From: a virus
DNA: 56,678 bases
Virus record (IMG/VR): IMGVR_UViG_3300005830_000062
Coordinates: 1 to 56,678 of that record
Reading direction: 5' to 3' (one strand)
Position 1 is the stretch's first letter. Each line of letters starts with the position of its first letter. This document shows, piece by piece, positions 2,783-52,410 of this stretch. Made by a program: the position numbers and the translations under genes. A model generated the notes under the pieces. It saw nothing but the letters and a program-made list of their open reading frames with translations. It made no database searches and had not been told where the DNA came from.

Positions 2783-4717
2783 CTACTCCTGAGGAGGAGG
2801 CTCCTGCTCAGGCAGCCAGTACACGGTGGGTTTATTTCTACCGCCTCCTTTCCTTGCCATTAGGATCTTGGCCCGGACAAGACGACCGGCTATCTCAACG
2901 AAGTCAGGACGGCGATATCCAGAAGCGGCAACGAGCTCAGGAGTGGTAGAGGGGCCGGCTCCAGCGATCAGATCGAGGATCAATTGCTCCTTGGTGCCTA
3001 CCTTGGTGTTCTCCTCGAACTCGACCTCATAGGTGTAGTTCTTTATCGTGTCGATATTGAACTTGAGCTTGAGGGCTCTGCCGGAAGGTGCCGCCTTGAA
3101 CTCCCTCTCAACGATGACCCGATCGATTCTTTCCTGGTCTTCCTCTATCACGGGCATTACATGCAGGGCACTTTCTAGCCACGCGTGGAAAGCGAAGCTC
3201 CCGTACATGTGTTGAGCGAATCTTTCTCCATCCTCGCTCTTGCCCTTGTTCCAATGGTGGACGATAGATACGGAGCATCCGAATTCCTCCCGCCACATCT
3301 TGACGGATTGAAGAACGGCACTGACTTCGTTCGCCTTATACTCATCGATCCCCTGTCCTAGCATGACAATCAGGGGATCGAGGATAACCATGACCGGGTT
3401 GATTTCTGCGATTAGCTTGCGAACCTGGGCTACTTTCTCTGGTGCGCCTAGGCTGAAGCTTTGTAGGTTGATAATGTGAAGAGGATAATCGGGATACTCA
3501 ATCTTCAGAAAATCTGATCTCTCTTCTGTAACTTTTGGAAGCATCCCTTTTGCTTTTGCGATCAGCCTGAGTCGTTCCTGTAGTACCGCTGCCGGATCCT
3601 CTTCCTGGACCAGAAGTACTGGACCGGGATTCCTAACGGGATACCGACCGAGGAAGGGAGCTCCAGATACGAGAGATAGGGCCAGATCTAACGCGATCCA
3701 AGTCTTGTAGGACTTAGATCGTCCCGATATAAATCCGACCGAAGAGTCTACCCAAGCCTCATCTATCAGCCACCTCAGATGAGTTGGGATCTGCATGAAG
3801 GCTCCCCATTCCTGGACCTTCATGTCCTCGATTTCTTCCAGCTGGGGGACTTCACGGGGTTTCTTTGCCCGTTCAGCGACGGCGGCAACAGCTGAAGAAA
3901 CCTGTTTCAGGAGCTGAGAGTGTTCGTCCCTTCGTCCAGCGAACTTATTCCAAGTACTTCGTTGGATGATATGAAGGACAATCTCGGGGCTTACGCCGAA
4001 GCGCACCAGGTCCCGCGTCAGCTTCTGTAGCTCGAGGCTTCTATCTCCATTTGGTTCTTGGAAAAGCCGTTTTCTAAAACCGACAGGTAACGCCGTGATC
4101 GCCATTTGGATCACCGGCTCGTCAATCTCAGTCCATTCCGAGCCATTCAACTCGGCTGGAGTTTCTCCGTTAACTGGAGGATAAGCGCCTTTTACTTCTT
4201 CGACAGAATAAGCGCGAGTTCTAGCCCATAGAAGCTTGACTTCCGGCGCTGACTCGTATTTGAAGTTATGCGTACCGGGAATGCGAAGAACCTGGGTGAG
4301 GTCCCATCCTCCTTTATCTCCACCATCCGCATAAGCAATTCTCTTTGATAAGGCTGCAGCGTCGTTAGGGTCGACTTCAGTAGTAAGGAACCAGAGTGCG
4401 TGATATCGTCCCGGCGAGCTTTCCCAGGCAACAGATGGTTTGAGCCGACACGAGTTCGGGTCGACGGGATCCAAGTCAGCCCACAGGACGTTCGTCGGGA
4501 GTGCATTCTCCTTCTTTCTATGAGGCTGTGAGAATACTACTGGACAGAAATACTGGTCTGCTCGCCCTTGCGGTTCTGGCAGTTGTGGCAGGGAACCCGT
4601 GTAAGGAATTCCAGGACGTTCATGCCACTTGTCCGGCTGTTCTTTGTACGGCAGAAAGACATAGCCATTCCTGTCACCCCAAACCGCGGCGAGCAGACGC
4701 TCAACGCGTCCCTCCAC
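2783..4717 (-). CDS. Bifunctional primase-polymerase / RepA-like (RecA-fold) helicase with a C-terminal wHTH.
   Basis: Prim-pol motifs LWADLD, SSPGRYHALW, RIPGTHNFK. P-loop GFISGRSKSYKTW. Walker B VMVILDPL. Confidence 0.8.
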   Translation of the reverse strand: MEGRVERLLAAVWGDRNGYVFLPYKEQPDKWHERPGIPYTGSLPQLPEPQGRADQYFCPVVFSQPHRKKENALPTNVLWADLDPVDPNSCRLKPSVAWESSPGRYHALWFLTTEVDPNDAAALSKRIAYADGGDKGGWDLTQVLRIPGTHNFKYESAPEVKLLWARTRAYSVEEVKGAYPPVNGETPAELNGSEWTEIDEPVIQMAITALPVGFRKRLFQEPNGDRSLELQKLTRDLVRFGVSPEIVLHIIQRSTWNKFAGRRDEHSQLLKQVSSAVAAVAERAKKPREVPQLEEIEDMKVQEWGAFMQIPTHLRWLIDEAWVDSSVGFISGRSKSYKTWIALDLALSLVSGAPFLGRYPVRNPGPVLLVQEEDPAAVLQERLRLIAKAKGMLPKVTEERSDFLKIEYPDYPLHIINLQSFSLGAPEKVAQVRKLIAEINPVMVILDPLIVMLGQGIDEYKANEVSAVLQSVKMWREEFGCSVSIVHHWNKGKSEDGERFAQHMYGSFAFHAWLESALHVMPVIEEDQERIDRVIVEREFKAAPSGRALKLKFNIDTIKNYTYEVEFEENTKVGTKEQLILDLIAGAGPSTTPELVAASGYRRPDFVEIAGRLVRAKILMARKGGGRNKPTVYWLPEQEPPPQE

Positions 4718-7232: not shown

Positions 7233-7261
7233 TTTACAAGGAAAACTATATGTCATATAAT
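7233..7261 (+). promoter_or_regulatory. Sigma70-type promoter, TTTACA-N17-TATAAT.
   Basis: Lies in the 50-nt gap between the SNF2 stop and the kinase gene. Confidence 0.55.
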
Positions 7262-7279: not shown

Positions 7280-7816
7280 ATGGCTAGGCAGAAGAAGAGG
7301 ATCATCGTCGAAGGGGTCGATGGCTCTGGTAAGACCACCCTCGTAGATGCTTTGATAGACCGGATAGGCAATATGAAGTTGGTCAGGAATGTTCATGGGC
7401 CTGACCAAGATTTCGATACCTGGTGGAAACAAATTCTCCTGGCACCACCAGACGGGCAGACTCCTATCCATGACAGGTTTTTCTATTCTGAGCTGGTATA
7501 CGGACCAGTAATCCGGGGAACGATAAATGCTGATCTTAATCTAGTACTTGATATCCAGAAGTTGCTGGCTAATGAGGCTCTTCTAATCTACGCCCGTCCA
7601 GATATTCGAAGGCTGGAGTTAGGCGCGAAAGTCAATGAACAGATGGAAGGAGTACACGAGAGATTCATTCAACTTCTCGAGCTGTATGACCAGACGATGG
7701 CTATCGAAGCTGTTCACTTCGGAAACAGATTCGTGCAATATGTCTGGTATCGGGATAATGAGCTCGAGAGAGTGGAGGGAATCGTAAGGAGATACATAGC
7801 TGGTGGCCTATCATGA
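7280..7816 (+). CDS. Thymidylate-kinase-like dNMP kinase.
   Basis: P-loop IIVEGVDGSGKTTL and a DRFFYSELVYG segment, as in the Tmk family. Confidence 0.7.
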   Translation: MARQKKRIIVEGVDGSGKTTLVDALIDRIGNMKLVRNVHGPDQDFDTWWKQILLAPPDGQTPIHDRFFYSELVYGPVIRGTINADLNLVLDIQKLLANEALLIYARPDIRRLELGAKVNEQMEGVHERFIQLLELYDQTMAIEAVHFGNRFVQYVWYRDNELERVEGIVRRYIAGGLS

Positions 7817-8282
7817 GTTACTTCGATTCATTGGTACACTTATATCTACAATTGCTCTGCTCTTGGGGTTCCAATACTCACCAAACACAACCATTTACGA
7901 CTTCCATACACCAACTGGCACTAAACCAAGCCATTCGTTTGCACCGGTACGTGTGCCCAACCCAACACCACAAGTTCATTCTAGGGCTATAGCATCATGG
8001 CACAGGGATTCACGAGTAAGTTGGTATGGGCCAGGGTTCTATGGTAAACGAACCGCCTGCGGCAAAACTCTCACCAAAACAATCCTCGGGGTCGCGCATA
8101 GGACGCTACCGTGTGGAACTCTCGTTACTTTCAGGTGGAAAGGAGTCCAAGTCACGGTTCCTGTTATCGATCGAGGTCCCTTCACTAAAGGTAGGACTTG
8201 GGATCTGTCAGGCGGTCTCTGTGTATATCTTTCGCATTGCTTCACAGGGCCAATCGAATGGAGATTGAATGAACATAACTGA
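7803..8282 (+). CDS. Membrane-anchored RlpA-like double-psi beta-barrel (lytic transglycosylase-like) protein.
   Basis: N-terminal TM (LISTIALLLGF). Then SWYGPGFYGKRTACGKTL...GVAHRTLPCGTLV...VPVIDRGPF, typical of the RlpA/DPBB family. Confidence 0.65.
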   Translation: MAYHELLRFIGTLISTIALLLGFQYSPNTTIYDFHTPTGTKPSHSFAPVRVPNPTPQVHSRAIASWHRDSRVSWYGPGFYGKRTACGKTLTKTILGVAHRTLPCGTLVTFRWKGVQVTVPVIDRGPFTKGRTWDLSGGLCVYLSHCFTGPIEWRLNEHN

Positions 8283-8733
8283 CATCAAGGCTGAGGCCCC
8301 CGAACTCTTCAAGGCGGACGGTGTTCGAGTAAGAGATATGCTCGAACTGATGTTTGAACGACAGTATCAACTAGAACTCAAATACGAGCAGATTGAGTTA
8401 GATAACGGGTTCTTCGTCCCAGATAATCTTAGAAGTCTTACCCCATTAGATCTGAACAACGCGAAAAATCAAGACTTCCTCAAAAACGCAGCTTACCGAA
8501 TGATTGAGGAACTCTCCGAGGCGACTAACACACTGAAGAACAAGCCTTGGAAAGTAACCCAGATTATCACCGACGAAGTACATTTCATCGAGGAAATGGC
8601 GGACGCCACCCATTTCTTCATCAGAATGTGGCTTTACATCTTCGGCAATCCTACTGATGCCGCAGAAGCTATGTATCGTACCTATTTCAAGAAATCTGAA
8701 GTTAACAAGTTCCGTCAGGAGTCGAATTACTAA
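8269..8733 (+). CDS. MazG-like all-alpha NTP pyrophosphohydrolase.
   Basis: IEELSEATN and FIEEMADATHF acidic metal-binding motifs. Confidence 0.6.
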   Translation: MNITDIKAEAPELFKADGVRVRDMLELMFERQYQLELKYEQIELDNGFFVPDNLRSLTPLDLNNAKNQDFLKNAAYRMIEELSEATNTLKNKPWKVTQIITDEVHFIEEMADATHFFIRMWLYIFGNPTDAAEAMYRTYFKKSEVNKFRQESNY

Positions 8734-8990
8734 TGAGCATGGGCAGCCGCAAGATCTACGTCCCCATGCCACAGAGCGAGATGTATCGTCGCACTCTGAA
8801 TCGGGACGAGCTTGTCAATAAATATGGAGAATCTACTGTTCTAAGAGCCGAGATTTCAGTCATTCTGAATCTCCTAATGATCACGAAGATCATCCATCCG
8901 TCAGAATTCGTGGATGCTATGGTCAGTCAATGTGAAAGAATTGAAGACGAGCGACGCAAGGAAGCTCGTTTGGAGGCCGACAGAGGGTGA
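8733..8990 (+). CDS. Hypothetical protein (85 aa).
   Basis: Track ORF with 1-4 nt overlaps on both sides. Confidence 0.5.
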   Translation: MSMGSRKIYVPMPQSEMYRRTLNRDELVNKYGESTVLRAEISVILNLLMITKIIHPSEFVDAMVSQCERIEDERRKEARLEADRG

Positions 8991-9892
8991 TAATCAAAAC
9001 CTTCCCCGACATCCGTGCCCTGTGGGAGGGAGCCTACTTCGGGATGTTAGAAGATCGTCCCGGATATATCGACTACTACCAGCGTAATATCCTTCACTCT
9101 CACCAAAATCACCTAATCGCCAAGAGTGCCGTATTTGATTTCGATCTTGGGGATATCGGCCTCACGCCTACTAAGTGGTCGAAGTTCACCGGGCAGTATG
9201 TGGATGTTGAACAGCTCCATGCCTGGGTGAATAACGCGATGAATGTGAAGACCTATGACGCACTCTGGACCTTCAAGATCGTCCCGCCTAATTTTGATGG
9301 TAAGAAAGCAGTGCATCAATGGGGTAACTGCCTGCTGGGTTTCAGTTTTCGGAGACAGCCCAAACCACCAACTCTCACGTTATATACTCGGGCTCAATCC
9401 CTCGGATTTTCTGGGGTGGCTGATTACGCTCTATGTGATTTCGTTGCCAGAAAGCTCGCTGAGCGGATGGGAATTGCCCAGTCCAGTATCCGACTCCAGA
9501 TCTACTGCCCCAATTTCATCATCAAAACTGTAGAAACTGTTCATACTCTTCATAAGTTTGGAAGACTCCAAGAATTCATGGAGGCTGAGGGCCGAGTACC
9601 AGATGCCGTCCGATACTACTACAACTATATGACGAGGGATGAAGAGGATATCAAATGGAGAGCTGCTAGGAGAATGCGGACTAAGTTCCTGAATGCCCAA
9701 GATGATATCTATAGGTCCTTCCCGGTGAAGGATCTAACCATCAAAGGCTGGCATGGGCATACCAGAATCAATCGCCAGATGACTTCAAGAGAAGTCTCCA
9801 AATTGGTTCTGACAGGAGAAGGCCGCCGAGTCCCAGAACCGTTGGAAATCCAGGAGGATGCACCGGGTGAGGATTTACTCATCGTTCCCTGA
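8987..9892 (+). CDS. Divergent thymidylate-synthase-fold protein (301 aa).
   Basis: WGNCLLGFSF...TLTLYTRAQSLGFSGVADYALCDFVARKLAERMG aligns by eye to the ThyA core PCH..QF...YQRS.D..LG.PFNI.SYALL. Cys is retained but QRSxD is degenerate. Confidence 0.45.
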   Translation: MIIKTFPDIRALWEGAYFGMLEDRPGYIDYYQRNILHSHQNHLIAKSAVFDFDLGDIGLTPTKWSKFTGQYVDVEQLHAWVNNAMNVKTYDALWTFKIVPPNFDGKKAVHQWGNCLLGFSFRRQPKPPTLTLYTRAQSLGFSGVADYALCDFVARKLAERMGIAQSSIRLQIYCPNFIIKTVETVHTLHKFGRLQEFMEAEGRVPDAVRYYYNYMTRDEEDIKWRAARRMRTKFLNAQDDIYRSFPVKDLTIKGWHGHTRINRQMTSREVSKLVLTGEGRRVPEPLEIQEDAPGEDLLIVP

Positions 9893-10544
9893 CGCCCTAA
9901 ATGAACTCAAGCGAGATATCGCTGAGCTTGGGATTAAGGTTCATCCACAGACGATGCAGGATAAGAACATCGCGGATGATCCTGACTACGAGACAATGGA
10001 ATACAACAACATGATCTACACGGTTACCCAGCCGAGACTGAAAGACCTTCATGATCATGTTAAAACTCTGGATTGGTGCGAGGCCGAGTGGATAGAGAGA
10101 TTAAGCTTCATCGGTCCAGGGAAGGCTAGCGCTTGGCAACTTCGACCAGAGGTCTGGGAAGAATTTGCTGAAAGAGGTTTCGACTACACCTACGGACAAA
10201 GATATGCTGACTCCCTATGGCGGATCATCTCAGAACTTAGGGATCATCCGGACTCTCGACAACTTTTCATGTCAGTCTGGGATCCAGTTGTTGACATCGC
10301 TCGACTTGGAAATCGTCGAGTTCCTTGTTCATTAGGGTATTGGTTCCTCCTACGCCAAGGCAAACTTCATATCACCTATCTTCAGCGATCGGCTGACTAT
10401 TTCACACATCTGGCCAATGATCTGTACTTGACTAGAAGGTTGCAAGAATTTGTTGCGGAGGAGATAGGGGCTTCGCCGGGGAATTTCACCCATTGGATTG
10501 GTTCCCTGCACGTCTACAAAAAGGACGTGGCGGATGTCTTCTAG
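9858..10544 (+). CDS. Thymidylate synthase / pyrimidine hydroxymethylase family enzyme (228 aa).
   Basis: SRQLFMSVWDP, RVPCSLGYWF, YLQRSADYFTHLANDLYLT and GSLHVY match the ThyA/dCMP-HMase signature. A GTG at 9867 is an alternative start. Confidence 0.75.
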   Translation: MHRVRIYSSFPDALNELKRDIAELGIKVHPQTMQDKNIADDPDYETMEYNNMIYTVTQPRLKDLHDHVKTLDWCEAEWIERLSFIGPGKASAWQLRPEVWEEFAERGFDYTYGQRYADSLWRIISELRDHPDSRQLFMSVWDPVVDIARLGNRRVPCSLGYWFLLRQGKLHITYLQRSADYFTHLANDLYLTRRLQEFVAEEIGASPGNFTHWIGSLHVYKKDVADVF

Positions 10545-10968
10545 AATATCGAGAGATGAACTTCTTATCAGGATTGCAGACATCGTGGCAGGTCGTGGAA
10601 CCTGCAACCGGGCCGCGGTCGGAGCAGTTATCTCTATGGGCGGCCGGATCATCTCTACTGGATATGTCGGAGCCCCCTCTGGGCTACCCCACTGTACTTC
10701 AGTTGGATGTGACCCATCGAACTCTACTGGTTGCTTACGGACCGTTCACGCAGAAGCAAACGCTATTGCTTTCGCCGCCCGCAATGGAATCGCTACTGGA
10801 GATGCTGAACTCCATTGTACTCATAGCCCGTGCAACAGTTGTGCCAAACTCATTATCAACTCGGGAATCAGACGAGTTGTCTTTGACTCTGAATACCGCG
10901 ACAGAGAACCTCTTAAGTTACTTGAAATGGCTGGAATCCAGGTAGTAAAGCATGTCCCTGAACACTGA
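10534..10968 (+). CDS. dCMP deaminase (zinc cytidine/deoxycytidylate deaminase family).
   Basis: VHAEANAI and THSPCNSCAKLI motifs. Start moved to the ATG at 10534, overlapping the upstream stop. Confidence 0.85.
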   Translation: MSSRISRDELLIRIADIVAGRGTCNRAAVGAVISMGGRIISTGYVGAPSGLPHCTSVGCDPSNSTGCLRTVHAEANAIAFAARNGIATGDAELHCTHSPCNSCAKLIINSGIRRVVFDSEYRDREPLKLLEMAGIQVVKHVPEH

Positions 10969-13366
10969 GGCTCGAGAAAAGGTTTGGCTTCCTGTAAGAG
11001 AAGCAGACTGCGTTCGCTGTAACCTCCACAGGGGAGCGAAAACTATTTGTCTTCTGGGTGATGGGCCAGTCCCAAGCAAGGTGATGCTAGTGGGGGAGGC
11101 CCCTGGTGCACGTGAAGATGATGTGGAAAGGCCATTTTCCGGAGTTGCAGGCCAGTATCTGGACCGCATCCTATCAGAAGTCGGATTACCCAGAGATTCG
11201 GTTTACATCACCAATGCGGTTCGTTGCCGACCGCCGGACAATCGGACTCCCACGAAAACAGAGCTCAAGGCTTGCTCAGTTTTCATGCAGCGTGAACTTG
11301 AAATTGTTGATCCTAGCCATATCCTTCTCCTTGGAAATGCGGCGCTACAAGCCCTGACTGGTAAGACTGGGATCATGACCAAACATGGGATCTCAGTCAA
11401 GATAGGTAACCGGATTTTCTTCCCCACAGTCCACCCGGCCGCTGTGCTACGAAACCCGGCTCACGAGGGTATCTTCAAGGCCGACCTACTGGCATTTGCC
11501 CGCCTTGTCCGTGGAGTAGATTCCCGCCCGGAAACTCAAACGGCGCTAATTCGCAGCTCAAAGGGGCTCGCGAAACTTTGCTCAATGCTAGCGGCTGTGG
11601 ATACTCCTATCTCCTTTGATGTGGAGACGGGAACGAAGGAGATGGATAGAGATGAAGGTGGTCTTCAGCCTTGGGCTCCTGATGGGGTTATTCATACAGT
11701 TTCGTTTTCTTGGGAAGAAGGAAGATCGTATGTCGTGTCCCTGGAACACCCAGCTACCGAATGGGACATCCCCATCGAGAGAGTATACGCTGCCCTTGAC
11801 GTAGCTCTAGCTGGCAAGAAGATGGTCGGACACAACATCAAGTTCGACTGTCAGTGGATGGCGGCGAAGGGGGTCCATCTCTATGCTCATTTCGATACCA
11901 AGCTCGCTGCTCATCTCCTTGACGAAAATCGACCTCAGGGTCTTAAACCTCTATCTAGATCTTATCTCGGAGCTGACGAGTACGAAGCCGGAATCTCCTT
12001 TACTGGATCTGCTACCTCACTTACGCGACTTGCGATTTACAACGGTAAGGATACAGATTACACCCTTAGATTATACCACATCTTTAGAGACGAACTAAAG
12101 AAGAACCAACGACTGGCGCGGCTTTTCATGAAATTGACCATGCCCGCCTGTCGAGCTTTCATTGAGTTTGAAACTACTGGCTTCCCGATCAATATAGAAC
12201 GACTCAGAGAACGCCACAAGGAGATTAAAGCCAAGATCGTAGAAATAGAGGATAAGCTACTCTCCTTCGTTCCCGAGGAGAAAAGGGGTATCGCCAACTT
12301 CCGCTCTGTGGTCTTCCTCGGTTGGTTCTTCTTCGATCATCTTGGACTCCCGGTTATCATCACAACTAAGACTGGAAGACCGTCCACAGCAGAGCCAGTA
12401 CTCCTCCAACTTCGTAAGAAGCATAAAGCGGTTGACCTTCTAATGGAGCTGCGGAAGTGGCAGAAATATGAATCGACGTATACTCGAAACTGGCTCACTC
12501 GAGTTGGAATTGCTCGCAAGCCACGACTTTACACCTCTTACAATCTTTCGGGGACCGTCACTGGGCGCCTCTCCTCTGATATGCAACAGGTGCCAAGGGA
12601 CGTATACATTCGATCTATCATCGGCACCAAGCCAGGATGGAAATTTATTGAGGCTGACTTTTCTCAGATCGAACTACGCATTGCTGCTATGTTTTCCCGG
12701 GACCCCGCGCTCACGAGAGCGTTCAAAACAGGAGGTGACCCGCATCGTGAAACAGCGGCAAAGGTCCTCGGAAAAGCCCCGGACCTAATCTCTAAAGAAG
12801 AAAGGAAGATGGCGAAAGCCGTTAACTTCGGGTTCCTCTACGGAATGGGGGCTAGAAAGTTCAAGACCTACGCGGACGAGAAGTATGACGTGCAGGTTTC
12901 AATGGAAGAAGCTTACCGATACAGAGAAGCCTTCTTCGAGCAATACCGAGGATTACCTGCTTGGCATGAAAGGCAACGTCGTCTTGTACGAAATCTTCAG
13001 GCAGTCAATTCTCCGCTCGGGCGTATCCGCCACCTTCCCACCATCTTGTCAACTGACGAGGAGATACAGGCTCAAGCAGAACGTGATGCTATTAACTCAC
13101 CCGTTCAGGGCATGGCATCTGACCTCACAGTCCTATCAATGGTCTATCTACATCAACGACTCGATCCGCGTAAAGCTAGAATCATAGGTAATGTGCATGA
13201 TTCGATTCTCCTTGAAGCAAGAGAAGCTTATGCCGAGGAGACGGCCAATATTGTAAAAGAAGTGATGGAGAATTTGCCTCTTAAGAAGCTCTTTGGATAT
13301 TCTCCATCTATTCCCATTGAAGCAGAAGTTACAATCAGTCAACATTGGGGAGAGGTTGAACCTTGA
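10952..13366 (+). CDS. polA: Family-A DNA polymerase with 3'-5' exonuclease and an N-terminal family-4 UDG-like domain.
   Basis: UDG motifs GEAPGAREDDVERPFSGVAG and HPAAVLRNP. Exo motif FDVETG. Pol motifs DFSQIELRIAA, KAVNFGFLYGMG, NVHDSILLE. Confidence 0.9.
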   Translation: MSLNTEAREKVWLPVREADCVRCNLHRGAKTICLLGDGPVPSKVMLVGEAPGAREDDVERPFSGVAGQYLDRILSEVGLPRDSVYITNAVRCRPPDNRTPTKTELKACSVFMQRELEIVDPSHILLLGNAALQALTGKTGIMTKHGISVKIGNRIFFPTVHPAAVLRNPAHEGIFKADLLAFARLVRGVDSRPETQTALIRSSKGLAKLCSMLAAVDTPISFDVETGTKEMDRDEGGLQPWAPDGVIHTVSFSWEEGRSYVVSLEHPATEWDIPIERVYAALDVALAGKKMVGHNIKFDCQWMAAKGVHLYAHFDTKLAAHLLDENRPQGLKPLSRSYLGADEYEAGISFTGSATSLTRLAIYNGKDTDYTLRLYHIFRDELKKNQRLARLFMKLTMPACRAFIEFETTGFPINIERLRERHKEIKAKIVEIEDKLLSFVPEEKRGIANFRSVVFLGWFFFDHLGLPVIITTKTGRPSTAEPVLLQLRKKHKAVDLLMELRKWQKYESTYTRNWLTRVGIARKPRLYTSYNLSGTVTGRLSSDMQQVPRDVYIRSIIGTKPGWKFIEADFSQIELRIAAMFSRDPALTRAFKTGGDPHRETAAKVLGKAPDLISKEERKMAKAVNFGFLYGMGARKFKTYADEKYDVQVSMEEAYRYREAFFEQYRGLPAWHERQRRLVRNLQAVNSPLGRIRHLPTILSTDEEIQAQAERDAINSPVQGMASDLTVLSMVYLHQRLDPRKARIIGNVHDSILLEAREAYAEETANIVKEVMENLPLKKLFGYSPSIPIEAEVTISQHWGEVEP

Positions 13367-15726: not shown

Positions 15727-15810
15727 GCCGGAGTGGTGGAACGGCAGACACAACGGACTTAAAATCCGTCGGCGAAAGCCATGAGGGTTCGAGTCCCTCC
15801 TCCGGTACCA
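15727..15810 (+). tRNA. tRNA-Leu (anticodon UAA), class II, CCA encoded.
   Basis: Hand-folded cloverleaf. Acceptor GCCGGAG/CTCCGGT. Anticodon arm ACGGA-CTTAAAA-TCCGT. Long variable arm GGCgaaaGCC. T arm GAGGG-TTCGAGT-CCCTC. Confidence 0.9.
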
Positions 15811-15811
15811 T

Positions 15812-15887
15812 AGGGGAGTAGCTCAGTGGTTAGAGCACCTGTCTTATACACAGTTGGTCCTGGGTTCGAATCCCAGCTCCCCTACCA
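15812..15887 (+). tRNA. tRNA-Ile (anticodon UAU), CCA encoded.
   Basis: Acceptor AGGGGAG/CTCCCCT. D arm GCTC-AGTGGTTA-GAGC. Anticodon loop CTTATAC. T arm CTGGG-TTCGAAT-CCCAG. Confidence 0.85.
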
Positions 15888-17940: not shown

Positions 17941-18045
17941 CGTTTATATCTAATCTCATCTGAGCCCAGTTAGGATTGGAGCCCCAACTACCGTGTAATC
18001 CGGAGTCAATAGCTCGTCTTTGAAAACCTTTGGGGGTTTTTTCTT

Positions 18046-18957
18046 CTAACATATCTTAAGATGATCAAAAGTTCGATTCATTGTTTGACCATTCTGTAGT
18101 TCATTTGTGAAATCCCACAAGATACACTCGCTAACGTCAGTCTCTGGTATTCCATCTACTAAATCTATCAACCACTCAATTGGTTCACCAGATGATTCTT
18201 CCCAAATCTTCAATCGACTATATTCACCTGAATAGAATTCAACTTTTAGGATATACCACTCATTCACTCTTATGGATCCGAAAGGAAATGGTGTATTATC
18301 TGATGATACACTACGAAGAGATAATGAGGCCATACTATCAGAAATAGGATTCCAACCTTGATTTAAGTTAAGTTGAATCCTAATCTGTTGTTCAAATCCA
18401 GGCCCATACCATAAGAATCGAACAGTATCTAATCCATTAGAGATAATAGCATCCTGTTTGAATCGTGTTAGAAATTGAAACTGATTTAGTTTTAAAGGTG
18501 GGGGTACTTCATTAGATGTATCAAAAAAGCCATATTGAGTTCGATTAGTTGAGGTGAAATCAACTACAAATTCTGCACCATTTGTATAGCCATCTACATA
18601 GCCAGTACCAGTTCCCCAATTCCAATCATAATTATCTGGTGTAGTTGCAACTAATCCAACTCCTAGACGATCAAAACTGTCGAACATGCATGATAATCCT
18701 CGATTACCTAAAGTAAGGATTTCTACCTGTCCCCGATTAGAATGAATAACAACTGGAGTTCCCTCTGGAAAGACTCGACGACCCCCAAAATCTCCAGCTG
18801 CTACTTTTGCTTTGATCGCGGCTGAAGTAGAAGTTCTAGCCATCGTAACTAGAACATATTGACCAATTCCATCATAAGGTTCTGCCAAATAAGCACGATG
18901 TAATCGATTAGGAATCTGTAATCGTTCGACAATTGAAGCAAGACTAGAACTACTCAT
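18046..18957 (-). CDS. Putative receptor-binding / tail fiber protein (303 aa).
   Basis: Last structural gene. AT-rich. Its N-terminal ~85 aa are homologous to the preceding 88-aa protein. Confidence 0.45.
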   Translation of the reverse strand: MSSSSLASIVERLQIPNRLHRAYLAEPYDGIGQYVLVTMARTSTSAAIKAKVAAGDFGGRRVFPEGTPVVIHSNRGQVEILTLGNRGLSCMFDSFDRLGVGLVATTPDNYDWNWGTGTGYVDGYTNGAEFVVDFTSTNRTQYGFFDTSNEVPPPLKLNQFQFLTRFKQDAIISNGLDTVRFLWYGPGFEQQIRIQLNLNQGWNPISDSMASLSLRSVSSDNTPFPFGSIRVNEWYILKVEFYSGEYSRLKIWEESSGEPIEWLIDLVDGIPETDVSECILWDFTNELQNGQTMNRTFDHLKIC

Positions 18958-19220
18958 TTCATTCCTAATGAAAGAATCTCAACCTGACCTCTATAAACAA
19001 ATACACTAACTGGAGTACCTACTGGAATAATCTGCCCAGTTCCAAAATCACCAGATGCGACTTTGGCTTTAACTCCAGCAGATGTAGAAGTTCTAGCAAA
19101 GGTTACTAATACATATTGACCGATTCCATCATAGTCCTCACCAAGATAGGCTCGGTGAATACGGTGCTGATTTGTTTGAGTACTGAGTTCAGTTAATCGC
19201 CTTGATGGTTGTATCTTCAT
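18954..19220 (-). CDS. Small tail-associated protein, paralog of the N-terminal domain of 18046..18957.
   Basis: Shared string HRAYL.E.YDGIGQYVLVT.ARTSTSA..KAKVA.GDFG...GTPV...RGQVEIL.LG. Confidence 0.5.
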   Translation of the reverse strand: MKIQPSRRLTELSTQTNQHRIHRAYLGEDYDGIGQYVLVTFARTSTSAGVKAKVASGDFGTGQIIPVGTPVSVFVYRGQVEILSLGMK

Positions 19221-21781
19221 GGGATTAGGCTATTATCAAGAGTAAGAAGTTGACGAGGTTCTTTGGATTGATTAATCCGAATAGACATTCCTTCAATTCT
19301 TACAATTGTAGTATTACCCAGATTATCAACCCACTCAATAGCATCCATCCTATTCAAATCGAAGAATAGGATAACTGTTCCACCAGGGGCAACTCCAATT
19401 TGACCTCGTCTGATTTCTTCTCTAGTTCTATCTTTTACAGAATCCCAATCTAGAAGTTCAGGCAAATCATAATAACCCACAATCTGCCTATCTCGAGATT
19501 GAGTATCTACTTCATCTACTTCTATCCAGGTATGTTCATTTCCATCAACTACAGCTAGATTAATTCTACGATTAGCCTCATCAGTATGTTCCGTAGAAAT
19601 GATACGATCCTGAATTTTCTTAACTGGAGTCTTGTCAGTGAAACGTCCGATCTGGATAAAACCATTTTTCCAAATCATTTGAAGTTTTTCAGTTTCTAGC
19701 GCCGTCTTTAAAGCTACTGCTGGACTGGGAATATCTGTCTGTGGACCCCAGATGATTGCATATGCTTTAGATTCTGCATTTCCAACTACTACATCATGAT
19801 AATCTCCCATTGATAAAGCAGTACGGATTAGATCCTCCATTGTCAGATTAGCTTCCCAATCAGTAAGTGTGAAATTAGAAATCTTGTAACTTGTCGCATT
19901 AAAACCTACATAACCAGGTTTGACATGTTCAGGATCTACTAGTTTACTATCTAATTTCAGATCATCATTATAGTAGATCTTATAAGCCCCATAAACTATA
20001 TCAACTTTAATTTTATGATTAGATGTTGACGTAATAGAAGTAGAGTCTAGGTTAGTAGAAACACCATTCTTTACCTGAGCAAGAAAGATAGTAGAACCAG
20101 ATATATAAACCTTCATATAATTGAGAGAGTTTACATATCTGAAGATCACAGTAGGAGTTCCTGTAACCCCAGACAAAGTAACTTCTATATTCGGATTATG
20201 ACCTTTCCAGCCAGTATACAAACAAATACCGCGAGATTGAAGACGATAATCTGTTGTCTCTAGAGGTGCAGAATCAGTTTCAAAGAAGTAGTTGAATGAT
20301 TTATTCCTTTTACCATCAGCCCAATCTTCCCAAAGAGTTTTACCTAGGAAATTGTAAGTATCTCTAAGTGAATTAGATAAACGATCCCAAACATCACCGA
20401 CTTGAACCCTTAGTCGACTAGATTCACCTTCTATCGAACGAGTAATTCTTCTAACCCACCAATCATTGAAATCAAAAAACTCAAACTGACCAGTTGTAGT
20501 TTTGATACCTACTTGAATTTTAGTACGTCTATCAGAAAGTGAAAGAATGTTATCGTTTACACCTAGTGGGTTTGAGACAGTATACTCACCATTACCTACT
20601 TGATTATCTGAAGGCATTTCCATGTTAACTTCTGGAACGAAGTTAGTTAAATCATACGTAACTGAAGATAATGGACGATACCAGACTTCACTATTACCAA
20701 CTAAGTAAACGTAAGATCCGGATTCGAAAACATACCAACCATGAAGACCTGAGATACCAGTATGAACTGGTTCTGACCAGTGATACAGGTCCTTAGATCG
20801 TTGCCATATAAGAGGGGAGTAGGTATCTGAGATAAGTTGATAATTTTCATCAACATGGTGTTCATTAGAGAATAGATACCAATACCCATCAGATAATAGA
20901 AACATCCTCGGGTAATTAAGTTCGTTATGACCCCAATCACTACCTACACCCCGAATTAGAGATAACGGTTCTGGTCGTGTAGTGGCACCATAGGTAGTAC
21001 TGGGAAGATAAGATATGACAATACTATCACCACGAGACTTTGCTCTGGGATCTGAAAACATTCCTATGCTTTGAAGTCGATAAAGTTTGGAGTTGATTAT
21101 ATAGCCCCAGATGGTAGTTCTATACCATTCATAGTTTAAGATATCGCTTGCTGGAGTGACCGAGTTGATATTCTCTGTGTAATATAAATCAAGAGTACGT
21201 CCGCCATGATTAGAAGTCTTCAATAAACGAAGATACATCATTCCGTTTGTGCCACCTTCTACTGGATAGATAGTGACACAATCTGCAGTTGGGTTCCAAA
21301 CTAAAGCATTATCTCGGTAAACACTTCCATCTGATTTAGAATGGTAAATGGTATAAGTACTAGCTCCTGTTGCAACTACTGCTACAGCTATATGATCACC
21401 AGAATAGAGTAATGACCAACTATTCCACTGAGCAGCTAAAGTAGGATCTGTAATAGTTTGAACATAGAGTTGGCGATCAGATTCTGATCCATCACCAACT
21501 CTTGCTCGAATGATATTACCATTTCCTAATAGTAAAGCTGAAGATTGTGCTCTATAAGATTGGGATAGAATACTAGTAACAGGCCCACCAGTAACGAAAT
21601 CTTTCTGTCTGATTTCAGTACCGGTTAGTTTTACCCATTGGTTTAGATTCTCATCGATAATAGAGATCTTTAATCCGGTTTCCCTGCTCCTTAATTCTTG
21701 GGCTGCTAATAGTTCAGCAGAAAAAGCCCCATAAGTACCAGCAGCCCCATATAAAACCGATGTTCCGTACTTTGTTGGCAT
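19217..21781 (-). CDS. Large distal tail / baseplate protein (854 aa).
   Basis: Size and position downstream of the tape measure and small tail proteins. Very AT-rich. Confidence 0.5.
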   Translation of the reverse strand: MPTKYGTSVLYGAAGTYGAFSAELLAAQELRSRETGLKISIIDENLNQWVKLTGTEIRQKDFVTGGPVTSILSQSYRAQSSALLLGNGNIIRARVGDGSESDRQLYVQTITDPTLAAQWNSWSLLYSGDHIAVAVVATGASTYTIYHSKSDGSVYRDNALVWNPTADCVTIYPVEGGTNGMMYLRLLKTSNHGGRTLDLYYTENINSVTPASDILNYEWYRTTIWGYIINSKLYRLQSIGMFSDPRAKSRGDSIVISYLPSTTYGATTRPEPLSLIRGVGSDWGHNELNYPRMFLLSDGYWYLFSNEHHVDENYQLISDTYSPLIWQRSKDLYHWSEPVHTGISGLHGWYVFESGSYVYLVGNSEVWYRPLSSVTYDLTNFVPEVNMEMPSDNQVGNGEYTVSNPLGVNDNILSLSDRRTKIQVGIKTTTGQFEFFDFNDWWVRRITRSIEGESSRLRVQVGDVWDRLSNSLRDTYNFLGKTLWEDWADGKRNKSFNYFFETDSAPLETTDYRLQSRGICLYTGWKGHNPNIEVTLSGVTGTPTVIFRYVNSLNYMKVYISGSTIFLAQVKNGVSTNLDSTSITSTSNHKIKVDIVYGAYKIYYNDDLKLDSKLVDPEHVKPGYVGFNATSYKISNFTLTDWEANLTMEDLIRTALSMGDYHDVVVGNAESKAYAIIWGPQTDIPSPAVALKTALETEKLQMIWKNGFIQIGRFTDKTPVKKIQDRIISTEHTDEANRRINLAVVDGNEHTWIEVDEVDTQSRDRQIVGYYDLPELLDWDSVKDRTREEIRRGQIGVAPGGTVILFFDLNRMDAIEWVDNLGNTTIVRIEGMSIRINQSKEPRQLLTLDNSLIP

Positions 21782-22464
21782 TATAATCGCTCGCGGAAAG
21801 TAAAGACAATAGAAAGATCTTGACCTGGATCATTAGAACCGACAGCATCTACATCAACGACAATCTGAACCCCAGACGGATAAGTAATATAGTTAGGACT
21901 AGCATGAGACCAAACTCTAATTCCGGCATTGAAGATAGGACGTAATCCGGGTGAAGCAGCATATAATGAAGTAGGTCCGAAGTTTATATCCAAAGCAGTA
22001 GTAGCACCAGATGGTGCACGACGTAATCTTGCATCAATACTTTGAATAGATAAACTTTTACCGAATGAGAAGGGAGAACCTAATGAAGCCCCATTTGGAA
22101 GAGATCCTTGATAGTACCACGGAATAACTTGTAGACCATGAACATCAGCATCCATTAAATGATCATATAAATTAGCCCCTCCCACAGGAAGGGCACCAGA
22201 GGGGAGAGTTATGGCAGTTGGATTGATTCTTGGGCCTTGTCCACTAGCTCCATCATGTTTATGCGCCCCTGTGGGATTTCCAAGCCGATAATCTAGTGTA
22301 GTTGCAACTGAGGAGCTATCTATCCCAATTTTCTTTTCGATTGCCTTGATAGCTTCCTTGATATTGTTATGATGATCATCTATAATCGCAGTTACGGTAT
22401 CGGTGACGTCGAAAAGTTCGGTATCTGTGTCCAATACGCTTGGGAAGTTAGTATTGCCAGCCAT
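21781..22464 (-). CDS. Tail fiber-like protein (227 aa).
   Basis: The N-terminus FPSVLDTDTELFDVTD...HHNNIKEAIKAIEKKIG resembles common phage fiber N-termini. Position is consistent. Confidence 0.4.
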   Translation of the reverse strand: MAGNTNFPSVLDTDTELFDVTDTVTAIIDDHHNNIKEAIKAIEKKIGIDSSSVATTLDYRLGNPTGAHKHDGASGQGPRINPTAITLPSGALPVGGANLYDHLMDADVHGLQVIPWYYQGSLPNGASLGSPFSFGKSLSIQSIDARLRRAPSGATTALDINFGPTSLYAASPGLRPIFNAGIRVWSHASPNYITYPSGVQIVVDVDAVGSNDPGQDLSIVFTFRERL

Positions 22465-33692: not shown

Positions 33693-34008
33693 TTCTGATC
33701 TCCTTGCCGGTCTGTCCTACAATATGGATGGATCCGGTTGTGAAACCCATTCTAAGAATTTGAGGGGGCGGTTTCTTAACTTCGTTACTCAATGAGAATG
33801 GTTGACCGGGGATTTTCTGAAGGAAATCCCATATCTCTGGAGAGACGATTGCAGCCCCCTCCCCATCTAAATTGATGTGATAAGTTTTATGTGTGTGAGT
33901 TCTGTGGCACTGGCCACATTCATAAGGTGTTCTATAGGGTCGATCCCCGGCGACTAGAGTGAATACACAGGTTGTTTCTACTGGGTGTGTTATCCTAATC
34001 CCGGGCAT
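33685..34008 (-). CDS. Hypothetical protein (107 aa) with a CGQCHRTHTH motif.
   Basis: Track ORF overlapping both neighbours by a few nt. Confidence 0.45.
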   Translation of the reverse strand: MPGIRITHPVETTCVFTLVAGDRPYRTPYECGQCHRTHTHKTYHINLDGEGAAIVSPEIWDFLQKIPGQPFSLSNEVKKPPPQILRMGFTTGSIHIVGQTGKEIRSG

Positions 34009-37026: not shown

Positions 37027-38073
37027 TTACGTGACGATTGCACCGATGATCCCGCGCCACTCGATCGGCTTGAACTGGAAGTCGTGGCGGATCTTATACT
37101 TGACTTCATCGAAATCGAACGAATACGGGTCATTTCCACCGAGAACGGCCCGAACGCCCGGATCCTTCAGCCCAACGAACGGAGTGGTGTTTCCGTTGAG
37201 AGTGATGAAGGCCAGAGGCGAAAGGCTACCCGTCGGATCGGAAAGGACGTAGTAGTTGTTCGCGTCCGTGAAGAACGGTTCAATGACGATGTTACTGAAG
37301 TGACCCCTCATCAGGTTCGCTTCAAGCTGAGACGATGCGTTCGGCAGCAGCTCGTTCTCATTGATAGCACGAGCCACGAACCGAAGTTCCGTCGGAATCA
37401 GAAGAGTCCGGTTTCCAGGAGTGACGATGGTATAACCCTCATCATCCGTGAAATCGTCGAACTTCAGGTCCAATGTCTGAAGGTTAACCGCACCTTCTGC
37501 AGTCGCCGCCAAAGCTGTGGTAACGATATTGCCGTGGTTGGCGCTGATCAGGGCATTCCCGTCGAACATCGTCGGGTTGCTCTGAAGAGCGGTGATAGCA
37601 GCTCGCTTGCTCATCGTACGAGCAAGAGCCTCGGCGAGCAGTCGCGGCAGTTCAGAGATCTGGTTCAGCCGGTCAGAAATGATCAGCTGCCGGGTCACAC
37701 TGAATGCAGCGCCCCACTCCTTGAGGCGAACCTTCTCCGCCGGGAACTCGCGAATTGCGATCTCATCGTACGGAGCGTTGAGGCCACGCTCGGGAATATC
37801 CTCAAAGCGGCCGAAGCGGCTAGAGGTATATTCCTCGAAGTCCTCAAGATCTACCTGACGTGTATACTGGTTCCAAACGCCCTGGACTTCCTCGAATCGA
37901 GAAAGGAAGCTGTGTCGAACGAGCTTTCCGAGATATGTCGGAAAGTCGCTGGTCGACATCGCCTCCTGAGCGTCCAGCAAACCAGCATCGGCGGATTCCT
38001 TCGCTTCAACGTATGCGTCGAAGAGTCGGATGCGCTTACCAACTGGCAGTCCGAGCGGATTGACAGGCGGCAC
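37027..38073 (-). CDS. Major capsid protein candidate (348 aa).
   Basis: Size and position after the scaffold and decoration-like genes. No motif verified. Confidence 0.55.
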   Translation of the reverse strand: MPPVNPLGLPVGKRIRLFDAYVEAKESADAGLLDAQEAMSTSDFPTYLGKLVRHSFLSRFEEVQGVWNQYTRQVDLEDFEEYTSSRFGRFEDIPERGLNAPYDEIAIREFPAEKVRLKEWGAAFSVTRQLIISDRLNQISELPRLLAEALARTMSKRAAITALQSNPTMFDGNALISANHGNIVTTALAATAEGAVNLQTLDLKFDDFTDDEGYTIVTPGNRTLLIPTELRFVARAINENELLPNASSQLEANLMRGHFSNIVIEPFFTDANNYYVLSDPTGSLSPLAFITLNGNTTPFVGLKDPGVRAVLGGNDPYSFDFDEVKYKIRHDFQFKPIEWRGIIGAIVT

Positions 38074-50976: not shown

Positions 50977-51460
50977 AGAACCGTGGCTCCTCATCGTCGA
51001 TGATTTCATCGGCATGTTCCATGTCGTACTTGTTCTCTAGGTACCAAACTGCCTCCGCGTCTTCATTCCAGTGTGAGTAGTCGGAAACTGGAGGGATATC
51101 ATCCCCTCTTCGCTTCGGCCTATCATGCAGTCTGATGCTATCATCCGGCATTAGATCCCCCGTCGTGGTTCCATCTGGAGTGATTACGGTAACTGGGCCG
51201 AAGTACTCGGTGTAGTATCCATCTGGGCGGGTCCACCACAGGAGGCTCCCATTTGGGAATGGAGGCGTCCGAGGGATCTCGTTCATCCATCTATTGAGCT
51301 TATCTCTCATGGTACTTTCATGAAGATCGGTATCCACCAGAACGAAGGATTGCTGCCATCCTGGCAACTGCCTGACTTCCCTGATCGCCACCATGTCACC
51401 CAACTTCTGATGGCAAATCTCGGAAATATCCTCGTTCCCCTTCACTACCAATTGATACAT
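50960..51460 (-). CDS. Hypothetical protein (166 aa).
   Basis: Track ORF. 1-nt overlap with the ruvB-like gene. Confidence 0.55.
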   Translation of the reverse strand: MYQLVVKGNEDISEICHQKLGDMVAIREVRQLPGWQQSFVLVDTDLHESTMRDKLNRWMNEIPRTPPFPNGSLLWWTRPDGYYTEYFGPVTVITPDGTTTGDLMPDDSIRLHDRPKRRGDDIPPVSDYSHWNEDAEAVWYLENKYDMEHADEIIDDEEPRFYDEDD

Positions 51461-52410
51461 CAGGTCCTCCGCATAGATCTAAAACTGTGAATATGTTCTC
51501 TGCCTGCTTCTGTGATTACCCTCCCATTCCTGATTCTTTCAATCAACCCCGAATACATGAGGTATGGCTCGACGGTGTTCTCCAGAGTTACATCCGCTTG
51601 ACGAAGCCTGGAGGCAATCGAGTCGATGCCGAGCGGTCCAGGCGCCTCCTCCAATACTCTAAGATATTGCCTGTCCAATGTTCTCAATCCTAGTCCATCT
51701 ACCCTGAGTTTCTTCCACAAGATGTTTTGGACGAAGGGCAGATCTGTGATGTCTGAATCGGTATAGAGTTTGAAATCCCTAATCCATTTCAGAAAGTTGT
51801 TCATGTACCTTGGCGTTCCCCGAGCCCGGACGGCGATTACTTCTAGGACTTCGATTGGAATGGAGAGCCCTAGTTTCTCTGAAGTTATTACCCCAATATC
51901 CGCCAATACATCTGGGTCATAGAATTGAAGTTCGAATTGGAGTTGGAACCTATCAATGAATGGTTGGGCGAGTTTTCCCAGATCTGTGGTGGCGCCAATC
52001 ACGGTCAATGGCGGCAATGGAGGCGTCGGAACTGAAACATTTCCGAACTTATAAAGTACTCGGTTGTCCTCCAAAACTGGGTATAGAACTTCTTGGGTTG
52101 GTTTTCTCAAGGCATGAATCTCGTCGATGAAGAAAGCCGTCTTTGGCTCTACCCTCATGATCTTCATGGCCAGTGCCTGAGGATTTCCGACGGTTGAGCC
52201 GATTAGGTCCTCCATCTTGTAGTTCATTTCCCTGGCAATGATCAAGGCTAGTGTTGTCTTCCCCAATCCTGGGGGTCCACTCAATAGAACATGAGCAAGC
52301 GGCTTATCCCTATGTTTTGCAGAGAAGATAGCCGCTGAAAGCTGTTCTTTGATTTGATCCTGTCCAAGGTATTCTTGGAGGCTTTTGGGTCTAAGGTTGT
52401 CAGCCTTCAT
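51460..52410 (-). CDS. ruvB: RuvB-like AAA+ Holliday-junction branch-migration ATPase.
   Basis: LRPKSLQEYLGQDQIKEQL, Walker A GPPGLGKTTLA, Walker B FFIDEIH, sensor RGTPRYMNN, C-terminal VEPYLMYSGLIERIRNGRVIT. Confidence 0.85.
   Translation of the reverse strand: MKADNLRPKSLQEYLGQDQIKEQLSAAIFSAKHRDKPLAHVLLSGPPGLGKTTLALIIAREMNYKMEDLIGSTVGNPQALAMKIMRVEPKTAFFIDEIHALRKPTQEVLYPVLEDNRVLYKFGNVSVPTPPLPPLTVIGATTDLGKLAQPFIDRFQLQFELQFYDPDVLADIGVITSEKLGLSIPIEVLEVIAVRARGTPRYMNNFLKWIRDFKLYTDSDITDLPFVQNILWKKLRVDGLGLRTLDRQYLRVLEEAPGPLGIDSIASRLRQADVTLENTVEPYLMYSGLIERIRNGRVITEAGREHIHSFRSMRRT

Follow-up and report, generated by a model that had tools for sequence, protein, structure and literature searches.

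Why would a phage carry two proteins of the thymidylate synthase (TS) fold side by side, in a row of nucleotide-metabolism genes that runs into its DNA polymerase? The question is raised by IMG/VR virus record IMGVR_UViG_3300005830_000062, whose full 56,678 nucleotides we analyzed and call the window: a phage genome of ∼57 kb, in which scans of open reading frames (ORFs) recognized capsid, portal, terminase, and tail genes together with a replication module. We name the ORF at 9858-10544 TS* and the ORF directly upstream, at 8987-9892, X; residue positions are given in ThyA numbering unless they are said to be those of the protein itself. Both belong to a row on the plus strand (7280-13366) that reads kinase, DPBB/RlpA-like protein, pyrophosphohydrolase, 85-residue ORF, X, TS*, deoxycytidine monophosphate (dCMP) deaminase, and a fused uracil-DNA glycosylase (UDG)-exonuclease-PolA (Table 1). 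With modest confidence, we read this row as a pre-replicative pathway that replaces deoxycytidine (dC) with a C5-modified dC, much as T4 does with hydroxymethylcytosine (hmC). The first-pass annotation of the locus, made from the sequence alone, had also seen a T4-like toolkit beside the polymerase gene, and a noncanonical pyrimidine pathway is still the best reading. What is new, along with the subfamily signature of TS*, is the near-obligate pairing of this protein with an uncharacterized, apparently catalytic TS-fold family in hundreds of phages, cultured ones included.

Two thymidylate synthase fold proteins

That TS* and X are tandem TS-fold paralogs, as had been proposed, was established by different means for the two proteins. 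TS* is recognizable from its sequence: it matches the Pfam family Thymidylat_synt (PF00303) with an E value of 4.3e-18 and a score of 65.9 bits, where the cutoff is 24.3, and ThyA, MilA, and AfhB chains in the PDB with E values from 5e-13 to 1e-11. Aligned with a canonical ThyA (gp68 of Microbacterium phage Huwbert), the PaMx74 TS homologue, T4 gp42, and AfhB of phage HY126, it shows Q127, R143, C146, S147, R166, S167, D169, H173, and D177. The hallmarks of the superfamily—the Pro-Cys motif (RVPCS) and the QRSAD motif with Arg166, Ser167, and Asp169—are present and are kept in 52 to 53 of 53 IMG/VR homologues, and R143, D169, and D177 are each found in 52 of these 53. The resulting subfamily signature, Q127, R143 (RVPC), C146, S/T147, R166-S167, D169, H173, and D177, is new in its combination of R143 and H173 with the loss of the C-terminal lid: TS* ends 9 residues after the H207/Y209 motif (GSLHVY), and its homologues end 7 to 37 residues after it, compared to ∼55 in ThyA. 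An alignment of eight members has 35 invariant columns, among them R154, H184, and D188 in the window protein's own numbering.

By several measures TS* lies outside ordinary ThyA, the comparison that the first-pass annotation had proposed as a check. Members of the subfamily are 26 to 65% identical to one another and 16 to 27% identical to ThyA, the PaMx74 TS, T4 gp42, and AfhB. TS* also scores far below the cutoff of every curated NCBIfam ThyA equivalog; the best of these, with 77 bits against a cutoff of 174.55, is TIGR03283, a short methanogen-type TS covered at model positions 34 to 200 of 201 (E value, 1.3e-21), which hints that short, lid-less TS-fold enzymes are an old lineage. Where a deoxythymidine monophosphate (dTMP) synthase has Asn177, Leu143, His147, and a C-terminal closure segment, TS* has Asp, Arg, and Ser and no such segment. 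A canonical ThyA with N177 and a full C terminus stands beside TS* in Huwbert and in two metagenomic loci (L151 and L154), and since the two coexist, TS* is not expected to be the dTMP synthase. The 40 window ORFs scanned include neither a recognizable canonical ThyA nor a dihydrofolate reductase (DHFR). With the T4-type dCMP hydroxymethylases, TS* shares Asp177 and not the acidic residue at 143; with the Xp12/PaMx74-type dCMP methylases, it shares D177 and not the full-length, ThyA-like C terminus.

X, in turn, has no match in Pfam, NCBIfam, or the PDB sequences; a profile of 112 sequences gave chance matches only against the PDB, and 118 diverse members of its family matched no Pfam family, PF00303 included. 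Its fold was recognized from structure. An AlphaFold2 model, computed from an alignment that was assembled in three homologue searches and owed its diversity to a search seeded with actinophage and CPD4 sequences, reached a predicted local distance difference test score (pLDDT) of 88.8 and a predicted template modeling score of 0.86. The structural comparison called for in the first-pass annotation then led to one superfamily: all 50 Foldseek matches listed against the PDB are TS-superfamily proteins, led by the dCMP hydroxylase AfhB of phage HY126 (9iqu; E value, 7.6e-6; template modeling scores, 0.42/0.56) and followed by the CMP hydroxymethylase MilA and T4 dCMP hydroxymethylase. Against the viral models in BFVD, uncharacterized X homologues come first, followed by TS and dCMP hydroxymethylases. 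Two independent hhalign runs with different alignments (P value of 4e-4 each) agree on the register, in which C115, R135, and D146 of X correspond to Cys146, Arg166, and position 177; from motif position alone (Q-Y-x-D, then a helix), we infer that Y71 is the counterpart of ThyA Tyr94. MilA (PDB 5b6d/5jnh), a TS-fold enzyme specific for cytosine that scores about as well as ThyA against TS* (E value, 1e-12), differs from both window proteins in its setting, being a cellular enzyme of antibiotic biosynthesis with a ribonucleotide substrate, Asp143, and no paralog partner.

The first-pass annotation had described X as a degenerate copy of the TS* core that keeps the cysteine and has lost QRSxD. 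The motifs that it quoted for both proteins are all found in the translations where it had placed them, and its description of the residues is accurate, with the addition that the arginine of QRSxD is kept along with the cysteine and that S167 and D169 are not. The protein is no relic, though: an HMMER scan found the family in 324 clusters at 50% identity (E value ≤ 1e-3; 213 of them with E value ≤ 1e-10), and its counterparts of Tyr94, Cys146, Arg166, and Asp177 are 96 to 100% conserved. Among 118 to 120 diverse members, whose mean column identity is 18%, Y71, G113, C115, and R135 are invariant and D146, S/T134, R/K63, and R229 are conserved at 92 to 97% (X numbering). In 76 further X and X-like ORFs beside TS* genes, the Cys, Arg, and Asp are found in all 76 and the Tyr in 75. 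Outside this core, the family is more variable. Position 169 is Ser (S138 of X) in the clade of the window and Tyr in the actinophage clade, and of the 76 X and X-like ORFs of the TS*-seeded loci, 59 have an acidic residue there (Glu or Asp); X of the window clade has no equivalents of H207 and Y209; and the model shows a shortened stretch between the Y94 equivalent and the core and an additional C-terminal helical region (residues ∼181 to 276, with a conserved R228-R229). From these patterns, X would keep the nucleotide-binding and -activating half of the TS active site, with the folate half varying or lost.

Is X then an enzyme at all? It might instead be a pseudoenzyme—a scaffold or regulatory subunit, a partner of TS* that binds nucleotides, or a decoy or inhibitor that captures host ThyA in a heterodimer—as would fit the absence of a D169 equivalent from the clade of the window and from that of the actinophages, the missing H207/Y209 equivalents in the former, the lack of any TS match at the sequence level, and the tight, often translationally coupled linkage to TS*. 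However, more than 190 diverse members with a mean identity of 18% share the Cys, Arg, and Tyr at 100% and the Asp at 96 to 100%, which is how an active site, rather than a scaffold, is conserved; an acidic residue at 169 is even retained in the gut/CPD4-like clade; and X is duplicated in some phages. We therefore consider a noncatalytic X, an alternative that concerns the role of this one protein only, unlikely, and X is probably a conserved catalytic family, as judged from its residue pattern. It was mentioned in none of the papers found in a literature search that included the carrier phages, actinophage DNA modification, and AfhB.

Conservation of the gene pair and its row

The arrangement seen in the window is not peculiar to this phage. 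In the 64 IMG/VR loci seeded with X, TS* is the next gene in 63 of the 63 that extend past X, the kinase is in its place in 62 of the 62 that reach far enough upstream, and every locus that extends far enough has kinase, pyrophosphohydrolase, X, TS*, and deaminase in this order; the pyrophosphohydrolase lies immediately 5′ of X in nearly all related loci. Starting from TS* instead, we found at least 501 IMG/VR loci and analyzed the 76 closest ones with enough upstream sequence: X lies within 600 nucleotides upstream of TS* in 61 and ∼870 nucleotides upstream in one (L134), and seven have a divergent X-like ORF (QGYC...YRSTE...GAD). The deaminase, which follows TS* in every X-seeded locus with enough downstream sequence, is missing from many gut-type loci of the TS*-seeded set, so that the conserved core is kinase, pyrophosphohydrolase, X, and TS*. 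Overlaps between the stop codon of one and the start codon of the other of the two TS-fold genes are common and not universal, and no natural X-TS* fusion was found in 144 loci. Loci with TS* and no X nearby are L132, L133, L137, and L142 to L145, some of which are on contigs of ∼245 kb.

Some related contigs (among L098, L146 to L150, and L152) have two tandem X paralogs before TS*, and in two more, four consecutive genes encode TS-fold proteins, namely, X, canonical ThyA, a second X (X′), and TS* (L151, 2065-5771; L154, 1905-5765). X has thus apparently diversified and may have different TS-type enzymes as partners. The same context recurs in GenBank: phages with an X homologue constantly show kinase, pyrophosphohydrolase, X, TS*, deaminase, PolA, and a Cas4-like nuclease, as in Gordonia phage SteamedHams, Streptomyces phage Zuko, Microbacterium phage Huwbert, Mycobacterium phage NoShow, Pseudomonas phage PMBT14, and metagenome contig L006. 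PolA follows the cassette in the annotated phages and the metagenome contig examined. The closest TS* (41% identity by tblastn) is that of Clostridium perfringens phage CPD4, where an X-like ORF precedes it. At the DNA level, a search of the 3.7-kb region against phage genomes gave no match. In the carriers, X is labeled "hypothetical" and its neighbors are labeled thymidylate kinase, dUTPase, thymidylate synthase, and dCMP deaminase. The five-gene arrangement is thus a widespread module.

A candidate route to modified cytosine and its alternatives

Which base would such a module modify? Published residue rules are informative here: the exchange N177D switches TS from deoxyuridine monophosphate (dUMP) to dCMP, position 143 correlates with the product (Leu with methyl and Asp/Glu with hydroxymethyl or hydroxy), and D169N marks flavin-dependent 5-hydroxy-dCMP synthases (PMC13326640); of all residues, those at 177 and 147 show the strongest association with metavirome contigs that carry modified cytosine (PMC8670742). 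Asp177 in both TS* and X therefore points to cytosine and not thymine as the target, and D177 together with S/T147 makes TS* an enzyme of the cytosine type. This prediction follows the published rules, and the type of pathway is already known from T4 and Xp12. Of the two replacements between which the first-pass annotation had left the choice, that of C is thus favored by Asp177 in both paralogs, and that of T by the dUMP route of SPO1, ViI, and M6 is not.

Gene neighborhoods tell a similar story. In a NEB MetaGPA follow-up study, a TS gene is found no more than 3 kb away from 70% of the dCMP deaminase genes on contigs with modified cytosine, compared to 6% on unmodified contigs, with PRA-PH, DNA_pol_A, and DNA_pol_A_exo1 as other top neighbors; 85% of the deaminase-linked TS genes on modified contigs were predicted from active-site residues, mainly position 177, to make 5-methyl-dC (5mdC) or 5-hydroxymethyl-dC, and many of the linked deaminases prefer 5-methylcytosine (5mC) or 5-hydroxymethylcytosine (bioRxiv 10.1101/2024.12.05.627091). 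The neighborhood in the window is of the same kind and, by analogy, would provide independent, phenotype-based support for modified cytosine.

In the pathway that we propose, the MazG-type pyrophosphohydrolase would first degrade dCTP (and dUTP) to the monophosphate, as a dCTPase/dUTPase that removes the canonical nucleotide and feeds dCMP. TS* would then attack C6 of dCMP with Cys157 (C146 in ThyA) while Asp188 reads N3/N4 of the cytosine, move the methylene of methylene-tetrahydrofolate to C5, and let water resolve the intermediate nonreductively, giving 5-hydroxymethyl-dCMP or a close relative. X, through its Cys115, Arg135, Asp146, and Tyr71, would work on the same pool of nucleotides, as the obligate partner of TS* or as the catalyst of a second step that reworks the C5 substituent. 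The P-loop kinase is the proposed kinase for the modified deoxynucleoside monophosphate (dNMP), the deaminase would supply the T branch from dCMP or from a modified dC nucleotide, and the phage PolA would incorporate the product.

T4 uses gp42, gp56, gp1, and the deaminase cd in these same roles, TS*, the pyrophosphohydrolase, and the kinase standing for the first three, and its hmC pathway likewise lies beside the DNA polymerase gene. T4 gp42 and TS* both have Asp177, both lack the ThyA-type C-terminal closure, and neither has His at 147 (Thr in gp42 and Ser/Thr in TS*). They differ at 143, where gp42 has Asp and TS* has Arg, and in the His173 of TS*, and they are 22% identical. Beyond the enzymes, the window adds the second TS-fold protein X, has no glucosyltransferase, and represents a siphovirus-type genome of ∼57 kb with a PolA replicase.

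On the nature of the transferred group, the first-pass annotation had held that methyl and hydroxymethyl transfer cannot be told apart by eye; the matter is indeed not settled, but it is arguable. The C-terminal segment of ThyA closes the active site for hydride transfer, and Carreras, Climie, and Santi reportedly found in 1992 that L. casei TS shortened at its C terminus no longer forms dTMP but still carries out the early partial reactions. Because TS* lacks the closure segment and has Arg, a nonhydrophobic residue, instead of Leu at 143, a nonreductive outcome is most likely, and we infer that a hydroxymethyl-type outcome is favored over methylation. D169 argues for an enzyme of the folate type rather than the AfhB type. 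Taken from these residues, TS* is predicted to be a dCMP-specific, folate-dependent, nonreductive C5 transferase.

Several observations weigh against this reading. No published product rule covers R143 or H173, and the known hydroxymethylases have Asp/Glu at 143. A single-sequence AlphaFold2 run of TS* reached a pLDDT of only 42.5 and gave no usable model. The cassette has no DNA glycosyltransferase or other post-replicative tailoring gene, and for the cultured carriers (Emalynvirus, Zukovirus, Mapvirus, CPD4, and PMBT14) we found no report of modified DNA. Seven of the 76 TS*-seeded loci have the order TS*, kinase, and pyrophosphohydrolase without X nearby, so that TS* may work alone. Finally, of seven deaminase-linked TS homologues tested in the MetaGPA follow-up, all of them with D177, five made 5-methyl-dCMP (5mdCMP) and not 5-hydroxymethyl-dCMP, in a set that may not include the TS* type (bioRxiv 10.1101/2024.12.05.627091).

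This last result also argues for a pathway of the type found in Xp12 and in PaMx74, a phage that replaces all C with 5mC (bioRxiv 10.1101/2024.12.05.627091). TS* would then be a reductive dCMP methylase making 5mdCMP, the deaminase would turn part of it into dT, C would be fully 5mC, and X would be an accessory. The cassettes of Xp12, PaMx74, and mSCD-B5 likewise have a pyrophosphohydrolase, a D177 TS, and a dCMP-deaminase-family gene close to PolA; TS* combines D177 with a nonacidic residue at 143; the deaminases linked to the tested enzymes prefer 5mC; and as the window ORFs scanned include no canonical ThyA, a route from 5mdC to dT would be useful. Nevertheless, the PaMx74 TS has a full ThyA-like C terminus and G173 and is closer to ThyA (31% identity) than to TS* (17 to 24%), and it sits with a DHFR gene and has neither an X nor an adjacent kinase, whereas TS* lacks the C-terminal closure for hydride transfer and no DHFR is encoded by the window ORFs scanned. 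In Huwbert, moreover, the canonical ThyA beside TS* makes a bypass to dT unnecessary. We regard this methylation route as a doubtful alternative.

Within the preferred reading, the replacement of dC with a C5-modified dC, X and TS* could form a two-component system, either as a heterodimer with composite active sites or as consecutive Cys-C6 enzymes, that makes an undescribed C5-substituted dC. TS-fold enzymes are dimers with shared active sites in which phosphate-binding arginines are shared across the interface; of these arginines, R126 is retained in TS*, where position 127 is Gln, and X lacks counterparts of them. For a second-step role of X, a precedent exists in the chemistry of the clade 2 aGPT-Pplases, in which a folate-independent Cys-C6 Michael adduct regenerates an exocyclic C5 methylene from 5-hydroxymethyl (PMC8989533). 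These enzymes differ from X in having a helix-hairpin-helix, glycosylase-like fold and in acting on 5-hydroxymethyldeoxyuridine (5-hmdU) in DNA, and X has no such Pfam match. By way of example, X could regenerate the exocyclic methylene from 5-hydroxymethyl-dCMP, or use a nonfolate cofactor, to attach a new group. We put forward this two-component scheme as a tentative idea that is more likely wrong than right.

Could the cassette simply raise dTTP, by way of dCMP to dUMP or of 5mdCMP to dTMP, and sanitize dUTP, leaving canonical A, C, G, and T in the virion? The database labels of the carriers read that way, and no published modification was found for these phages. But Asp177 in both TS-fold proteins is a cytosine signature, TS* is far under the ThyA equivalog cutoffs and coexists with a true ThyA, such neighborhoods are enriched in C-modified contigs, and plain dTMP synthesis would hardly call for a kinase of its own or for a further conserved, catalytic protein of the TS fold; we judge it distinctly improbable. 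Less probable still, and very unlikely in our view, is that TS* or X is a flavin-dependent dCMP 5-hydroxylase providing 5-hydroxycytosine as an anchor for later tailoring, like RB69 gp48, DLP3 gp80, and HY126 AfhB (PDB 9iqu/9iqc). Among the structural matches of X, AfhB ranks first, and its sequence aligns with TS* over the full length; enzymes of its type are equally short (∼230 to 240 residues) TS-fold proteins with D177 and a truncated C terminus, T147 being shared as well. Yet their diagnostic Asn169 is absent from both window proteins (D169 in 52 of 53 TS* homologues and Ser, Tyr, Glu, or Asp in X), position 143 is Glu in the AfhB type and Arg in TS*, TS* is only 25% identical to AfhB, and the cassette holds no arabinosylation, nucleoside diphosphate (NDP)-sugar, or DNA glycosyltransferase genes. 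Thymidine replacement or hypermodification by the 5-hmdU route of SPO1, ViI, and M6, which in outline has a similar kinase, pyrophosphohydrolase, dCMP deaminase, and TS homologue (PMC8989533), is scarcely credible given Asp, not Asn, at 177 of both TS-fold proteins and no aGPT-Pplase, 5-HMUDK, or pyridoxal phosphate enzyme among the Pfam matches of the 40 window ORFs scanned. The specific assignments of X as an aGPT-Pplase and of the kinase as a 5-hmU DNA kinase were rejected for the same lack of matches and the same Asp177.

Flanking genes, genome setting, and significance

The genes around the pair are largely those that the first-pass annotation had named, as confirmed with Pfam, PHROG, and PDB comparisons: a kinase that is weakly Tmk-like, a MazG-type pyrophosphohydrolase, a zinc dCMP deaminase, and then the polymerase (Table 1). 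For the kinase, Pfam Thymidylate_kin matches the N-terminal P-loop only, just under the cutoff (E value, 5e-6), and the PDB gives weak matches only. The pyrophosphohydrolase reaches Pfam dUTPase_2 at the cutoff (E value, 1.1e-4) and has no NCBIfam match. The deaminase, whose true start is probably the ATG at 10534, matches phrog_174 (E value, 9e-48) and the dCMP deaminase 2hvv in the PDB (E value, 3.7e-28); it could act on dCMP or on a dC nucleotide modified at C5. The polymerase ORF consists of an N-terminal UDG domain (E value, 3.8e-32), DNA_pol_A_exo1 (9.7e-17), and DNA_pol_A (1.6e-85), and as the replicase, it would have to accept the modified deoxynucleoside triphosphate.

Table 1. Features of the gene row and its upstream promoter candidate
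Feature	Position	Strand	Evidence or remark
σ70-like promoter candidate TTTACA-17-TATAAT	7233..7261	+	Upstream of kinase gene, 11/12 matches
P-loop nucleotide kinase, weakly Tmk-like	7280..7816	+	phrog_761 thymidylate kinase, E 3.5e-13
DPBB/RlpA-like (lytic transglycosylase-type) protein, hydrophobic N terminus	7803..8282	+	Pfam DPBB_1, E 1.2e-10
All-alpha NTP pyrophosphohydrolase (MazG/dimeric dUTPase/PRA-PH type)	8269..8733	+	phrog_12184, E 1.8e-26
85-residue ORF between pyrophosphohydrolase and X	8733..8990	+	No significant family match
X, 301 residues	8987..9892	+	Divergent thymidylate synthase fold protein, phrog_13667
TS*, 228 residues	9858..10544	+	Thymidylate synthase family, distinct subfamily
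Zinc dCMP-deaminase-family enzyme	10498..10968	+	Pfam dCMP_cyt_deam_1, E 1.4e-20
Family 4 UDG domain + 3′-5′ exonuclease + family A DNA polymerase	10952..13366	+	Pfam

One gene of the row, that of the DPBB/RlpA-like protein, had gone unmentioned in the first-pass annotation. It is absent from the cassette in the actinophages, CPD4, and PMBT14 and is probably a passenger outside the pathway. In SteamedHams, a lysin B interrupts the row at a similar point, after TS* and before the deaminase, and small ORFs lie at the spot that matches the 85-residue ORF. As had been assumed, the row is compatible with one transcription unit, since each gene overlaps or abuts its neighbor. The only two intergenic gaps, before 7280 and after 13366, each have a near-consensus σ70-like site; such sites in the region do not exceed the expectation from shuffled sequence, so the promoter candidate is weak evidence.

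Elsewhere in the window, a RepB-type primase fused to an AAA_25 (DnaB/RecA-like) ATPase (2783-4717, minus strand) lies upstream of the helicase-to-polymerase row, and adjacent tRNA-Leu(TAA) and tRNA-Ile(TAT) genes (15727-15887, plus strand) follow a DUF669 gene. The first 2 kb of the contig are GC rich (0.62). A low-GC island at 18000-22000 (0.38 compared to ∼0.50 elsewhere), with minus-strand ORFs of 303 and 854 residues that have no Pfam matches, may be a recently acquired tail fiber or receptor-binding module. Directly adjoining the major capsid gene (37027-38073), a 991-residue protein (33995-36970, minus strand) combines a GT2 glycosyltransferase, TPR repeats, a class I methyltransferase, and GT4/GT1 and is a candidate for glycosylation or methylation of virion proteins, DNA tailoring being less likely. 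A full-length RuvB-like AAA+ ATPase (RuvB_N, AAA_lid_4, and RuvB_C; 51460-52410, minus strand) is unusual at this siphovirus genome size.

Pre-replicative replacement of pyrimidines is a major counterdefense of phages and a source of enzymes for epigenetic sequencing. To this field the cassette adds two unexplored branches of the TS fold: a lid-less, cytosine-type branch with Arg143 and His173, and a family without a Pfam or NCBIfam model that appears to have kept no more of the active site than its nucleotide-activating half. The X-TS* pair occurs in soil actinophages, in phages of Clostridium and Pseudomonas, and in gut viromes, under the labels "thymidylate synthase" and "hypothetical protein." If the cytosine reading is true, many cultured phages would have an unrecognized modified cytosine, with consequences for restriction and CRISPR sensitivity, sequencing, and the design of phage therapy; and because cultured carriers are already in collections, the question of cytosine modification is directly testable. 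Should the more tentative two-component reading be true as well, hundreds of siphophages would have a new base in their DNA, among them many cultured SEA-PHAGES actinophages that are annotated with an ordinary thymidylate synthase.

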